In this document: piece by piece, positions 21,205 through 24,784 of the stretch
Numbering within the stretch: the stretch's first letter is position 1
Layout: every line of letters begins with the position of its first letter
Assembly: GCA_913040915.1 (NCBI GenBank)
Contig: CAJWHW010000004.1
Span: 15,351 to 79,350 of the forward strand
Direction: 5' to 3'
Length of the DNA: 64,000 bases
Source of the DNA: an uncultured Fidelibacterota bacterium
Lineage (GTDB): Bacteria > Fidelibacterota > Marinisomatia > Marinisomatales > UBA1611
Translations under genes and position numbers: made by a program
Notes under the pieces: generated by a model
What the model was told of the DNA's origin: nothing
Database searches by the model: none
What the model saw: only the letters and a program-made list of their open reading frames with translations

Positions 21205-22254
21205 TTAATCTTGCATTTTTCTAATCCAATTTTTAACAAGCTCTACACCTTCTTTATGAACCAGTTTTCTGCCCAGTTCAGGCATCATGATTCCAGGGTC
21301 TGTTGATTCTATTCGATAAAGCATTATTGATTTATCTGGATGCCTTGGTACAATGGTGTATTTCATATCACCCGAGCCCCGTCCTGCTGCAATAGGTGGT
21401 TTCATGATCCCTAATTTTGTTGGATCAGTTTCTTCAACATTCAAAAATAAACCTGATGTTTCTCCTGGAGCACCAAACCGATGGCAATGGGCACAGTTAA
21501 TATCAATCCAGGCCCGCGCTCGTTCAGCAACAGTTCCATCTTCGTGATTATCATAATCGGGCGTATAAGGCAATTCAGAAATTGGAGGTAGCCCTTTTAT
21601 CATATCTAATTCTGACCATTTCTGTAGTTGATTCATTATCTCATTCCCATAATCATAGTCATTATTTAGTAGTCTTACTTTTGGTCCAATAGGTACCATT
21701 TTATTGTGACTGACATGACAACCTTTACATTGATTGAAGTTGGGGACACTATATTTAAAATTGACTTGTTCGCCTGCAAAATTAGTAAATGACACATCCA
21801 TTCTGTCACCGGCAATTTCTAAGAATGCATCTGACTGCTCTTCATCCCAAATATAGGGGAAGCCCATCCAGCCATCGGGAGTATGAATAAGTAGCCTTGT
21901 CTCCATGAGACGAATATTTTCTTCAGGATATCTTAAATCAGCAGGGAAATAAAATGTTTTAATCAGTATGGACTCAATTGGAAAATCAAAGGAACCGTCT
22001 ACTTGGTAGATTAATTGTTCACCGGCTGGTAAAACAATAAATCTAGATTTTAGAGCATAATCAGAAAATAATTGAGCTGATATATTATATGGGACTATGC
22101 CATCTGCTGGCTGGTGTTGTGCTATCCGTCCTTCAAAGAAATTATAATCAGATAATTTAGGCTTTGCATATTTAAGTGGACTTATTCCAGAAAGAAGGGA
22201 AAATAGAATAAGAGAAAAAGCAAAGCGATGCACTTTTCTCAAAAAAATAATCAT
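21205..22254 (-). CDS. Secreted diheme c-type cytochrome (SO2930-like)
   Basis: Two CxxCH motifs (CKGCH, CAHCH); LFSDYALKSRF, ETRLL and MMPELGR motifs; signal peptide. Confidence 0.85.
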   Translation of the reverse strand: MIIFLRKVHRFAFSLILFSLLSGISPLKYAKPKLSDYNFFEGRIAQHQPADGIVPYNISAQLFSDYALKSRFIVLPAGEQLIYQVDGSFDFPIESILIKTFYFPADLRYPEENIRLMETRLLIHTPDGWMGFPYIWDEEQSDAFLEIAGDRMDVSFTNFAGEQVNFKYSVPNFNQCKGCHVSHNKMVPIGPKVRLLNNDYDYGNEIMNQLQKWSELDMIKGLPPISELPYTPDYDNHEDGTVAERARAWIDINCAHCHRFGAPGETSGLFLNVEETDPTKLGIMKPPIAAGRGSGDMKYTIVPRHPDKSIMLYRIESTDPGIMMPELGRKLVHKEGVELVKNWIRKMQD

Positions 22255-23438
22255 TTTTTTATTTCTAAGATCAATTGGTGTTCACTACCACAATGATGCG
22301 GAGATAGATCTTCCGAAAAATTAGAAATAAATGGTGAATACCATTCTTTAAAATTGTGTTCTATGTCTAGATTTGTAAATCTAGCGCGCCCATTATTTTG
22401 AATACATAGTCCTGCTGTTATTTTTGGATCTTGCATACCATCATAAATAATATCTGGTATGTTCCTTCCGTATTTAATTGCTAATAATTTTCCAATGTCA
22501 TAATCTAAGGTGGGGAATCCTGGCCATCGCTCATAAACATTATTATATATATGAATATCTGCTGTGTAAGGATTATATAGAGAATCCTTAATTGTTTCTT
22601 CTGTCATGAAATAACTGACCACACCAGTTCCTACACTTTTATTATTTCGAATTGTATTCCGGTAAATATATATATCTCTACAGGCTAAAATCATAATTCC
22701 TGTACCCGGGAGTACTTTTCCAACAATATTACCCGGGGGTGCGAAATTGAATAAATTATTGGATTCAATAATGTTATTAAAAACATGAATATTCCCGCCT
22801 TTTTTCTGTATCAGGTCAGGTAAATCAAATACAAGAATACCCCCCGTATTATTATAGGTATGATTTTTGTAGACTTTTGCATTATTTGAATTTTCAATTT
22901 CAATACCAGCCACATTATCAAAAACAGTGTTATAGCGCACAATGATTTCATTAGACTGACCCACATAAATTCCGGCGTCAGAAGCACCGATCGAAAGTGA
23001 ATGTTCAATTAACACATTATTACATTGCACTGGATATAGTCCATAGGCTCCATTGGTAGGTTTGGGACCTCCTGTCCATTCTGTTTTTAAGTGACGGAAA
23101 ACAATTCCATCCGTATATTGAACCTTAATGGCATCACCTTTTGAATCTTGAACTGTAAAATTTTCCAATGTTATATTTTTGGAATTAGTAATGCTGATGC
23201 CTTGCGCTCCTTCTTCTTGATTGGAAAACTGCAGGATGGATTTATCCATGCCGGATCCACGAATAAACAAATTTTCTTTTCCTTCAATTGATAAAGTACC
23301 TAAAATTAGATGGACACCATCCGGCACTGTGATGGTGTCACCGAACTCTGCTAGAATGAATTGCATTTGCAGTTCTTTTTCCAGATTCGCATAAGCTATG
23401 CAAACTAAAAGATGAAGTGATATGGTTAAATGGGTCAT
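22251..23438 (-). CDS. Parallel beta-helix repeat protein
   Basis: NGAYGLYPVQC, GASDAGIYVGQS, NVAGIEIENS and NNTGGILVFDLP motifs; coupled to the diheme cytochrome gene. Confidence 0.85.
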   Translation of the reverse strand: MTHLTISLHLLVCIAYANLEKELQMQFILAEFGDTITVPDGVHLILGTLSIEGKENLFIRGSGMDKSILQFSNQEEGAQGISITNSKNITLENFTVQDSKGDAIKVQYTDGIVFRHLKTEWTGGPKPTNGAYGLYPVQCNNVLIEHSLSIGASDAGIYVGQSNEIIVRYNTVFDNVAGIEIENSNNAKVYKNHTYNNTGGILVFDLPDLIQKKGGNIHVFNNIIESNNLFNFAPPGNIVGKVLPGTGIMILACRDIYIYRNTIRNNKSVGTGVVSYFMTEETIKDSLYNPYTADIHIYNNVYERWPGFPTLDYDIGKLLAIKYGRNIPDIIYDGMQDPKITAGLCIQNNGRARFTNLDIEHNFKEWYSPFISNFSEDLSPHHCGSEHQLILEIKK

Positions 23439-23550
23439 GCGTATAATTAAGAAATTAAGTGCAACTTAAGGTATGAATAAACATCAAAATAACGCATTCA
23501 ATAATTCCCGCATATTTTCTTTTTTAAAAATCTTTGCTTAGATTTAAAAA

Positions 23551-24267
23551 ATGAAGCCTACTCGTTTCCATTCCTGGAATGTTTCTCCTGAAGAAGCATC
23601 TGCAATTCAGCTCAATTTGCGTGATAAAGTTGAAGTTCAACCTTTGCCAAATGATATTGAATTGGTGTGTGGGACATCTATATCTCATGATCCAAATACC
23701 AATACAGTGCATGTAGCATTAGTGGTCTCAAAATTTCCAGCGATGGAATTAGTAGAGTGTCACAGTCTATCAGAAGAAACCACATTCCCTTATGTTAGTG
23801 GTCTATTGGCATTTCGGGAAGCACCGTCTTTGATGACATTGCTAAAGAGAATCCAGTACCAGCCTGATGTAATATTATTTCATTCTCACGGGCTTGCCCA
23901 CCCCAGAAAGTTTGGCTTAGCATGCCATTTAGGTGTTTTATTTAATATACCATCGATTGGTGTTGCAGACCGGGTTTTGGTTGGATACCATGATAATTTG
24001 CCGATAGAGAAAGGATGCTATGTCCCACTTAAGGATAACAAGCAAGAACTTGGACTTGTTCTGCGTACAAAGGAAGATGAGAATCCTATATTTGTTTCTG
24101 TTGGGCACAAATCGGATCTTTTCACTGCTATGGAATTAACTATGAAATGCATCACGCGTTACCGGCATCCCGAACCCATACGCCAGGCACAATTAGCTGT
24201 GAGAGCCCAAAGAGATGGTGAAAATATTGATTTAGAACATGGTAGTAATCAAGCGTCTTTATTTTAG
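23551..24267 (+). CDS. nfi: Endonuclease V homolog with substituted catalytic residues
   Basis: FPYVSGLLAFRE, HPRKFGLACHLG, PIFVSVGH and PEPIR motifs; the catalytic Asp positions are replaced. Confidence 0.85.
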   Translation: MKPTRFHSWNVSPEEASAIQLNLRDKVEVQPLPNDIELVCGTSISHDPNTNTVHVALVVSKFPAMELVECHSLSEETTFPYVSGLLAFREAPSLMTLLKRIQYQPDVILFHSHGLAHPRKFGLACHLGVLFNIPSIGVADRVLVGYHDNLPIEKGCYVPLKDNKQELGLVLRTKEDENPIFVSVGHKSDLFTAMELTMKCITRYRHPEPIRQAQLAVRAQRDGENIDLEHGSNQASLF

Positions 24268-24430
24268 TACATATTTTTATGCTCCAAATAAAACAATAAC
24301 TATAGGAATTGTAAGTTTCTAGGATAGAGGTTAGAGTTTTAGCATAATGGTCACTTATTTCTTATTTTATATTTTAGTTATTAATAATAACCTAACATTG
24401 TTTTTTTAAAGTAAAAATAAAGGAATAGAT

Positions 24431-24784
24431 ATGTCTGAATTCACCCTATATCATAATCCAAGGTGAGGGAAAAGCAGGGGAGCCGTGTCGCTCCTCAAAG
24501 AAGAAAATATAGATTTCAAAATTATAGAATATTTAAAAACACCCTTAAATAAAAAAGAAATCTTATCTATCTCTAAAAAACTGAACCTTCCTCCATCAGG
24601 TTTTGTGCGAAAGAATGAAGTAGAATTCAAAGATAATAATTTGAGTGATGAGCTTGATAATGATGAAACAATGGCAGAAGCAATCGCGAAATTTCCAAAA
24701 ATTATGCAACGTCCCATTGCTGTTAAAGGCAACCAGGCAGTCATTGGACGTCCGCCAGAAAATGTTTTAATTTTAATTCGTTGA
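24431..24784 (+). CDS. arsC: ArsC-family (glutaredoxin-type arsenate reductase-like) selenoprotein; in-frame TGA at 24464-24466 read as Sec
   Basis: SD-like AGGA at 24421 and ATG at 24431 give MSEFTLYHNPR-(TGA)-GKSRGAVSLL, continuous with the 24485 ORF; the TGA sits at the catalytic Cys of HNPxCxxSR; conserved Arg in FVRK, QRPI and GRPP. Confidence 0.85.
24477..24496 (+). promoter_or_regulatory. Candidate bacterial SECIS element
   Basis: Stem GGGGAGC/GCTCCTC with loop CGTGTC; 17 nt lie between the UGA and the loop, and the loop has G in position 2. Confidence 0.7.

Follow-up and report, generated by a model that had tools for sequence, protein, structure and literature searches.

From bacteria to humans, endonuclease V (EndoV) is regarded as one and the same kind of Mg2+-dependent nicking enzyme, and the described members with which we compare the protein reported here are Thermotoga maritima EndoV (Tma; TM1865, structure 2w35) and Escherichia coli Nfi (4xpu). 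The metal-coordinating active site of the T. maritima enzyme has been described as consisting of D43, E89, D110 and H214 (PMC3025561), with Mg2+ coordinated directly by D43 and D110, the 5'-phosphate at the nick locked by K139 and H214, and the hypoxanthine received in a pocket formed by G83, L85, G111, G113, G121 and L142 (PMC4650699). In a panel of 36 T. maritima mutants, the inosine-specific product was missing only in D43A, D43C and D43H (PMC3025561). When Ca2+ replaces Mg2+, EndoV has been reported to bind inosine specifically and not to cut it, calcium being essential for this binding by the canonical enzyme (PMC11273454), so a non-cutting EndoV can serve as a reader. The window considered in this work, a stretch of 64,000 nucleotides from an uncultured Fidelibacterota (Marinimicrobia) bacterium (contig CAJWHW010000004.1, positions 15,351 to 79,350), contains at 23551..24267 on the plus strand an intact open reading frame (ORF) of 238 amino acids (aa), running from an ATG codon to a TAG codon and coding for an EndoV-fold protein in which both Mg2+-binding Asp residues are replaced and which ends in a pentapeptide of the type that binds the beta clamp, DnaN. 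It belongs to a family-level clade of such proteins, for which we propose, at about even chances, a role in reading lesions without cutting while tied to the clamp.

The ORF matches the Pfam profile PF04493 (Endonuclease V) with E=2e-61 and 207.6 bits (cut-off 23.4) over profile positions 3-197 of 198, and scores below the cut-offs of both NCBIfam equivalogs for deoxyribonuclease V, namely NF041102 (216.1, cut-off 300) and NF008629 (203.5, cut-off 230). The AlphaFold2 (AF2) model of the protein has a predicted local distance difference test score (pLDDT) of 85.6 and a predicted TM-score (pTM) of 0.85. Foldseek aligns it to T. maritima EndoV (6ozg_B, 2w35) with a query TM-score (TMq) of 0.87, a target TM-score (TMt) of 0.92 and a root-mean-square deviation (rmsd) of 1.9 A, the ranges over 6ozg_B, 2w35 and 4xpu being 0.81-0.87, 0.92 and 1.7-2.0 A, respectively, at an identity of 36-37% to the canonical EndoV structures. 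The next matches after EndoV are Argonaute PIWI chains, and mouse EndoV-RNA structures are also among the matches. Since it lacks D43, D110, K139 and, in this strain, H214 and scores below the equivalog cut-offs, the protein is filed here as a divergent member of the EndoV fold family and not as deoxyribonuclease V; it should be kept in mind that such genes are automatically named "deoxyribonuclease V" in the source records despite failing the equivalog cut-offs. The sequence is not an assembly artefact, as metagenome contigs from four runs of four studies (X3, X5, X9 and X11) cover parts or all of positions 23500-24300. They differ at three positions, 23709, 23719 and 24024 (codons V53, L57 and V158), all three differences being synonymous; X3 is near-identical across the whole stretch and may represent the source sample. 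All the sequencing runs carrying the gene are marine.

The alignment to T. maritima EndoV (2w35, 2w36, 6ozf) produced with HMMER has an E-value of about 1e-43 and contains one single-residue gap up to residue 110, which makes it possible to follow each functional residue; the features below all lie on the plus strand. In motif I, GVD43 of T. maritima reads GTS43, so that the first Mg2+-binding Asp is replaced by Ser (T42-S43, 23674..23679). The segment P80-E90 (PYVSGLLAFRE, 23788..23820) corresponds to the T. maritima wedge PYIPG followed by FRE89 and retains the wedge residue Tyr81 (Tma Tyr80), pocket residues G84 and L86, R89 and the acidic E90 (Tma E89). In motif IV, FD110GQG reads FH111SHG, and the second Mg2+-binding Asp is thus replaced by His (H111-S-H113-G114, 23881..23892; H111, H113 and G114 are invariant columns across the clade). 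Both phosphate-holding residues are replaced as well: GVAK139 reads GVAD140 (D140, 23968..23970), and PEPTRLAH214 reads PEPIRQAQ214 (Q214, 24190..24192), with no Lys at the former and neither His nor Asp at the latter. The LAHPR segment is retained and so is the lesion pocket, represented by G84, L86, G114, G122 and L143 (Tma G83, L85, G113, G121 and L142). All the motifs listed in an earlier, sequence-only reading of this ORF (GTS, HSHG, GVAD, PEPIRQAQ, PYVSGLLAFRE, AHPR and the terminal QASLF) are found in their places. Hereafter, positions 43, 89, 110, 112, 139 and 214 without a residue of the window protein follow the T. maritima numbering.

The substitutions are not a peculiarity of one strain. 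A PF04493 search of the phylum found a match in 58 of 301 genomes (37 of the 180 high-quality ones), from which 59 ORFs were extracted. In the family to which the source genome belongs (f1), the gene is present in 10 of 26 genomes and in 5 of 12 genera, and all 11 ORFs found there have S, N, G or A at position 43, E at 89, H at 110 and D, T or N at 139; these include two partial copies at contig ends in one genome (G267), both of the variant type. Families f2, f4, f9, f10 and f15 of the same order possess the canonical set D/E/D/K/H, and families f25, f27, f28 and f30 are likewise canonical, with D at 214. The variant pattern (S, A, G or N at 43, H at 110, D, T or N at 139) is also common to 51 of the 120 best database clusters, some of which have hundreds of members. 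The close canonical relatives P0047, P0054 and P0302 carry the source names Fidelibacterota or Neomarinimicrobiota, and the first two of them are nearly identical to genomes of f4. EndoV is patchy in the phylum, and whole families have no PF04493 match (f3, 0/30; f5, 0/42; f24, 0/26; f26, 0/33).

A quick IQ-TREE tree was built from 87 rows, comprising the window protein, 49 genome ORFs (at least 225 aa, no X) and 37 of the 120 database hits chosen to span the range, with fragments and the duplicate L001 left out. The variant proteins form a single clade of 22 rows with a support of 99 in the Shimodaira-Hasegawa-like approximate likelihood ratio test (SH-aLRT). Its sister is made up of the canonical-type clusters P0032, P0033, P0036 and P0038 (support 97; 100 for the joint node), and the next group outward consists of canonical proteins from f4, f9 and f10. 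With 0.33, the variant clade's stem does not exceed the adjacent stems in length, and the clade's internal branches are similar to those of the canonical clades. The variant pattern is thus that of a family-level clade and not a strain oddity. One of the sister clusters, P0033 (17 member sequences), has G at 43 and Q at 214 while retaining D110, K139 and a QTTLF tail; it may represent a second, separate loss of D43 near the variant clade, or possibly an intermediate, and its lost D43 and H214 suggest that catalysis is dispensable in this lineage with clamp-type tails. A second, independent EndoV-like clade devoid of the catalytic residues was observed in family f21 of the same class (L053-L056, L058 and L059 from G163, G156, G134, G202, G180 and G269). 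Its residues at positions 43, 110, 139 and 214 are F, N or S, N and R, respectively (ACFVC / VNATG / GVTN / PEPLRQAR); it retains the Tyr wedge and E89, lacks the Q..LF tail, matches Pfam more weakly (E about 1e-36) and sits on a very long stem (3.2).

Selection was assessed by the ratio of nonsynonymous to synonymous substitution rates (dN/dS), calculated according to Nei-Gojobori on codon alignments of 8 of the 11 f1 ORFs (the other three being fragments), five canonical ORFs from f4, f9 and f10 and 14 ORFs from f28. Most pairs are saturated at synonymous sites, and only pairs with a finite dS were used. Two variant pairs gave dN/dS values of 0.095 (L018-L022, dS 1.09) and 0.070 (L022-L027, dS 1.53), compared with 0.124 for the canonical pair L008-L009 (dS 1.08) and 0.10-0.18 for close canonical pairs of f28 (dS 0.23-0.63). 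Purifying selection on the variant is at least as strong as on canonical EndoV. An alignment of 45 variant proteins contains 48 invariant columns, including T42, Y81, E90, H111, H113, H117, Q234 and F238.

To these may be added a comparison of 47 variant with 192 canonical rows, taken from database proteins of 180-320 aa. Both sets keep F88 as well as Q20, Y81, G84, L86, R89, E90, G114, H117, R119, G122, G137, L143, R205 and PEP-R211, which serve as wedge, pocket or DNA-binding residues. Those found in at least 90% of variant and at most 20% of canonical rows are K2, P3, R5, S8, N22, K26, T42, D47, M95, L97, H111, A216, G223, Q234, L237 and F238. Since several of those in the N-terminus and in the tail also occur in the canonical sister group, these mark the lineage rather than the variant. 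T42 is present in 100% of variant rows versus 2% of canonical ones. Position 43 is occupied by S, N, A or G in 47/47 variant rows, none of them a metal ligand, and position 110 is H in 100% of the variant rows and D in 192/192 canonical ones. Residues 140 and 214 vary together (T-Q in 18 rows, D-H in 13, N-Q in 7, D-N in 3, D-R and D-Q in 2 each, T-P and D-gap in 1 each) and seem to compensate for each other, an acid being matched by a base and a neutral residue by another neutral one. The D140-Q214 pairing of the window protein is rare. The PEPIRQAQ motif to which the earlier reading had drawn attention does contain Q214, yet this residue is peculiar to the strain and its 99% twin, most close relatives having H.

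It might be supposed that the gene is decaying or is a strain-specific accident with no selected function. Only one of the five active-site residues is left unchanged, 16 of the 26 f1 genomes searched lack the gene, and the window copy has the longest terminal branch of its subclade (0.33) together with its private H214Q change. Such a supposition is nevertheless extremely improbable, with the ORF intact in 10 genomes of five genera and in about 50 metagenome clusters, dN/dS values of 0.07-0.10, the 48 invariant columns, a confidently predicted fold and nothing but synonymous differences among the metagenome contigs. That the substitutions and the terminal QxxLF are kept in orthologs, one of the points by which the earlier interpretation as a pseudo-enzyme was to be judged, thus holds for the whole family-level clade, the tail being near-invariant. 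No second, canonical nfi, which might stand beside the variant, was found by the PF04493 search in the 10 variant-bearing genomes, the source genome (85% complete) giving a single hit.

What the altered site does is less straightforward. The absence of any possible metal ligand at position 43 in many members and the disappearance of K139 speak for the loss of nicking, and the variant resembles a natural D43/D110 double mutant. On the other hand, the earlier reading of the protein as catalytically dead or metal-switched can be followed only in part: the metal-binding Asp residues are indeed lost throughout the clade, but invariant H110, H112, T42 and E89 do not agree with a simply dead enzyme and make the metal-switched version a possibility. 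The main competing explanation is that the protein is a remodelled, still-cutting nuclease, in which a site made of E90, H111 and H113 replaces the all-carboxylate Mg2+ site. Two His and one carboxylate might there bind a transition metal such as Mn, Fe, Co, Ni or Zn, or a His might act as general base; T42 and residue 140 would be second-shell partners, and the enzyme would make incisions beside deaminated bases while riding the clamp. The invariance of E90, H111, H113 and T42 in 45 rows and purifying selection as strong as that on canonical EndoV are what such an enzyme would be expected to show, and active-site changes other than those of D43 were tolerated to some degree with excess enzyme in the T. 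maritima mutant panel (PMC3025561). Set against it are the A or G found at position 43 in many members, given that Tma D43A, D43C and D43H yielded no specific product, and the variation at 140 (D, T or N) and 214 (H, Q, R, N or P), which leaves just three possible ligands fixed.

The recurrence of His at position 110 in other lineages bears on the same question. When 1.84 billion representatives were searched with a profile, 6261 hits were obtained at E<=0.001; the best 150 of these, which were examined, included 147 new representatives, 128 of them canonical (D-Y-E-D-K-H/D) and 19 not. On a FastTree tree of 256 rows with the catalytic columns removed, H110 needs four changes, leading to the Marinimicrobia clade, P0059 with P0246, P0183 and P0207. 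His at 110, never seen in the 192 canonical rows, would therefore have arisen at least four times and each time with a second His two places on (xHxHG), which is present in 4/4 H110 lineages versus 77/192 canonical rows. The lineages of P0059/P0268/P0246, P0183 and P0207 have CHAHG or VHGHG and G, A or E at 43. P0059 was already noticed as the one further cluster with H at 110 among the 120 best, belonging to a different lineage, and might have stood for another large H110 clade; with P0268 as the sole close cluster among 120 hits, however, it does not strongly support convergence. Four out of four against a background of 40% makes for weak statistics, the H110 lineages other than the Marinimicrobia clade are small, and the nearest rows of P0207, with L or A at 110, look like decay. 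Moreover, HxH needed only one change, as the canonical sister proteins already have the second His (FDAHG/FDGHG). The convergence on H110/H112 seen in the alignments is thus suggestive but weak, and we regard a remodelled nuclease as a possible but somewhat unlikely explanation. The same search returned a protein of 1285 aa (P0121) with three Endonuclease V domains (PF04493, E=3e-110), of which the domain best aligned to the variant profile has N-L-E-Y-D at the five checked sites.

The second half of the proposal concerns the C-terminus. The pentapeptide consensus for binding to the beta clamp is Qxx[LM]F, or QL[SD]LF. The protein ends in QASLF (residues 234-238, 24250..24264), which fits Qxx[LM]F and in which Q234 and F238 are invariant in 45 rows. 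It is preceded by a variable linker (residues 219-233, 24205..24249), in most columns of which the top residue is below 70%. In the AF2 model the last helix ends at residue 221, the mean pLDDT is 78 for residues 221-230, and it falls below 50 for 231-238. Across the variant clade the tail takes the form Q-[TAE]-[TS]-L-F, with Q in 46/47, L in 45/47 and F in 46/47 rows. Such an end is rare in the source genome, where, of the 1738 ORFs with 100 aa or more, only three have Q..[LM]F at the C-terminus or one residue before it. One of the others lies outside the window, at C1:50660-51682 on the plus strand, and is a 340-aa ORF ending in ...KDQQGLFE, the N-terminus of which is presumably RuvB-like.

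Similar tails are found on canonical relatives. The canonical sister rows P0032, P0033, P0036 and P0038 end in QTTLF(E) or QTSLF, and further canonical tails are QETLF and QLDMF in f4, QKTLF in f10 and a weaker QLIML in f9; the tail is hence older than the change of the active site and not specific to the variant. Clamp-type ends were also noticed in canonical EndoVs of other lineages, some of them labelled as of Chloroflexota type by their sources, such as QQLSLF (P0192), AQTSLF (P0138), KQKALF (P0176) and RQQTLF (P0303), while P0088, P0097 and P0111 have ...LFD(L) endings of the Q.[AS]LFDL type. A clamp-type tail may therefore be a wider, undescribed feature of EndoV.

A search of the source genome with PF00712, TIGR00663 and the DnaN of the same-genus genome G267 gave no dnaN hit, which is ascribed to a gap in the assembly, 85% complete, rather than to absence of the gene. 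The complex prediction was accordingly made with residues 195-238 (variant-clade alignment) and the G267 DnaN (alignment of 33 relatives). The resulting interface score (ipSAE) was 0.48 (0.53, 0.48 and 0.47 in individual runs), three controls scoring 0.00-0.01; at least 45% of the contacts agreed between the runs, and the pLDDT of the partner was 41-44. In calibration, 116 of 157 solved complexes and 2 of 215 mismatched pairs had reached the mark, with scores of 0.60 or below reaching it in only 18 of the 157 solved complexes and in both of the passing mismatches. As there are solved structures of clamp-peptide complexes, resemblance to these may be all that the pass reflects. Near the C-terminus of DnaN, the stretch M361-L-L-M-P-I-R367, which we take to line the peptide cleft as in E. 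coli beta, hardly varies, if at all, among the 33 relatives. Docking of the tail on DnaN thus receives weak support from the model. The only Y-family polymerase hit in the genome (PF00817, 390 aa), considered as an in-genome example of a clamp motif, was uninformative, having no recognisable C-terminal Q..LF.

Alternatively, Q..LF might not bind DnaN at all and serve another partner or an intramolecular contact, so that there would be no clamp tether whatever the catalytic state of the protein. The weak complex prediction, with its low partner pLDDT, agrees with that, and no clamp-binding motif in EndoV was found in the literature searched (open-access papers and bioRxiv preprints); besides, one of the two other genome ORFs with an ending of this kind looks like an outer-membrane protein, in which a terminal Phe means something else. 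We consider this alternative unlikely, however, in view of the fit to Qxx[LM]F at the extreme terminus after a variable, low-confidence linker, the retention of Q, L and F in 45-46 of 47 rows, the like endings of canonical EndoVs from other lineages (P0192, P0138 and P0303), the negligible scores of all three controls and the constancy of the M361-R367 stretch. The clamp tether put forward in the sequence-only reading accordingly stands as far as the conservation of Q..LF is concerned, while the tail turned out to predate the active-site change and to be shared with canonical relatives, and the DnaN prediction for it is a weak one.

Taken together, the observations are, in our opinion, best accommodated by the non-cutting, clamp-tethered reader. 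We infer, from sequence comparison, that nicking has probably been lost, while lesion binding would be retained and the clamp would be bound. The Marinimicrobia clade keeps what would be needed for recognition, i.e. the Tyr wedge, the hypoxanthine pocket and the DNA-binding residues, whereas the replacement of both Mg2+-binding Asp residues and of the phosphate-holding Lys would abolish the Mg2+-dependent nick 3' of deoxyinosine, leaving a putative non-cutting binder of deaminated or distorted DNA. The flexible C-terminal Q..LF, probably inherited from canonical and presumably clamp-tethered EndoV ancestors, would dock in the peptide cleft of DnaN and bring the reader to newly replicated DNA, where binding to a lesion might be followed by marking, shielding, stalling or the recruitment of another nuclease. 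At the phosphate beside the lesion His111, with E90, His113 and T42, would take the place of the metal and provide a metal-independent grip with no hydrolysis; we infer that such a grip could fit both sets of facts, the signs of lost nicking and the invariance of the altered site.

Several points weigh against this proposal. H111, H113, E90 and T42 are invariant across the clade, which argues that some function persists at the old active site, since drift would be expected at one that is merely dead. The mutants on which the argument draws were made in T. maritima EndoV, i.e. in a different background, the clamp prediction is weak, and the DnaN used for it was taken from a same-genus genome and not from the source genome itself. 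Sixteen of the 26 f1 genomes searched have no EndoV, and the function must therefore be dispensable. No RNA runs carrying window positions 23300-24500 are listed. Finally, no downstream partner of the reader was identified, and there is no obvious repair partner among the neighbouring genes.

The lesion read could also be inosine in RNA, for example at tRNA position I34 or in edited mRNA, and not in DNA. EndoV family members do bind and cut inosine-containing RNA, with the mouse EndoV-RNA structures being among the fold matches mentioned above, and EndoV has been described as a ribonuclease usable as an anti-inosine binder (PMC11273454). Still, replication or repair of DNA is what the conserved clamp-type tail suggests, bacterial enzymes acting on DNA are the closest matches in both sequence and fold, and the neighbourhood contains no RNA-related genes, which makes an RNA reader quite improbable.

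As for the neighbourhood itself, the synteny in the family includes a nitroreductase, an asparaginase-like gene, EndoV, an ArsC-family gene and an exported EEP-family protein; no repair operon, partner nuclease or RNA-related gene was seen next to EndoV. The EEP protein was considered as a partner nuclease and rejected, its N-terminus being signal- or lipoprotein-like. In the window and in L018, L022 and L050, two genes separate the asparaginase-like gene from EndoV (window 21205-23438, minus strand), while in L032, L044 and L052 the asparaginase-like gene abuts EndoV, so the presence or absence of this pair is an insertion or deletion within the family. In the window the two genes code for a 349-aa protein with no Pfam hit and CxxCH-like motifs (21205-22254, minus strand) and a 395-aa right-handed beta-helix / NosD-like protein (22251-23438, minus strand). 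The ArsC-family ORF (24485-24784, plus strand, 99 aa, GTG start) matches profile positions 16-77 of 79 only, starting from its residue 34, and directly follows an AT-rich gap of 217 bp; the start codon may have been called wrongly, or else the protein may diverge from the profile at its N-terminus.

No natural inactive EndoV was found described in the open-access papers and bioRxiv preprints searched. A clade that occurs in nature, is abundant and under selection, and has kept lesion recognition with neither of the metal-binding Asp residues would thus provide the first "reader-only" or chemically re-engineered EndoV of natural origin. A clamp tail on EndoV, canonical relatives included, suggests clamp-coupled repair of deaminated bases in some bacteria. 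The clade would, in addition, be a ready natural inosine-binding scaffold, of interest to inosine capture, for which Ca2+-blocked EndoV is now used.

Compared with canonical EndoV (T. maritima TM1865 and E. coli Nfi), the variant has the same fold and length, the Tyr wedge, the pocket, the DNA-binding residues and E89. It differs in the replacement of D43, D110, K139 and, in this strain, H214, in scoring below the equivalog cut-offs, and in having the linker and the Q..LF tail, the alignments to the T. maritima and E. coli chains ending at residue 218. In engineered T. maritima D43A (2w36) and D110N (6ozf) and in the Ca2+-EndoV "anti-inosine antibody", as in the variant, a metal-binding Asp or Mg2+ has been lost, and binding with no cutting is a property of those forms; unlike them, the variant is natural and selected, has His and not Asn or Ala at 110, and is also changed at K139. 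Clamp-binding pentapeptides are carried by Pol II, Pol IV, Hda and MutS/MutL. Repair and replication proteins of this kind likewise have a short Q..LF at a flexible terminus that is conserved while the linker varies, and a clamp-tethered repair enzyme is represented by Nei2 of Mycobacterium tuberculosis (PMC9690074). The PIWI domains returned by Foldseek belong to the same RNase H-like superfamily and offer another parallel. Short prokaryotic Argonautes have catalytically inactive PIWI domains, in which a nuclease fold has been kept as a nucleic-acid binder after the loss of acidic residues; unlike them, the variant EndoV has no guide strand and no associated effector gene nearby, and would recognise a lesion and not a guide-target duplex. 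A functional analogy is provided by archaeal family-B polymerases, for which read-ahead sensing of uracil and hypoxanthine has been described (PMC5045986). As a tentative possibility, a bacterial lineage abundant in the ocean may have made a repair nuclease into a counterpart of this guard, one that would ride on the clamp, read deaminated bases with no cutting and couple the detection of hypoxanthine to the replisome and not to incision; the recurrent change of D110 to His beside a second His would then mark the switch to a metal-free grip on the scissile phosphate. The variant and the archaeal guard would both be non-cutting detectors of deaminated bases working with the clamp, but the likeness ends there, as the archaeal guard is an unrelated protein in which the detector is the polymerase itself.

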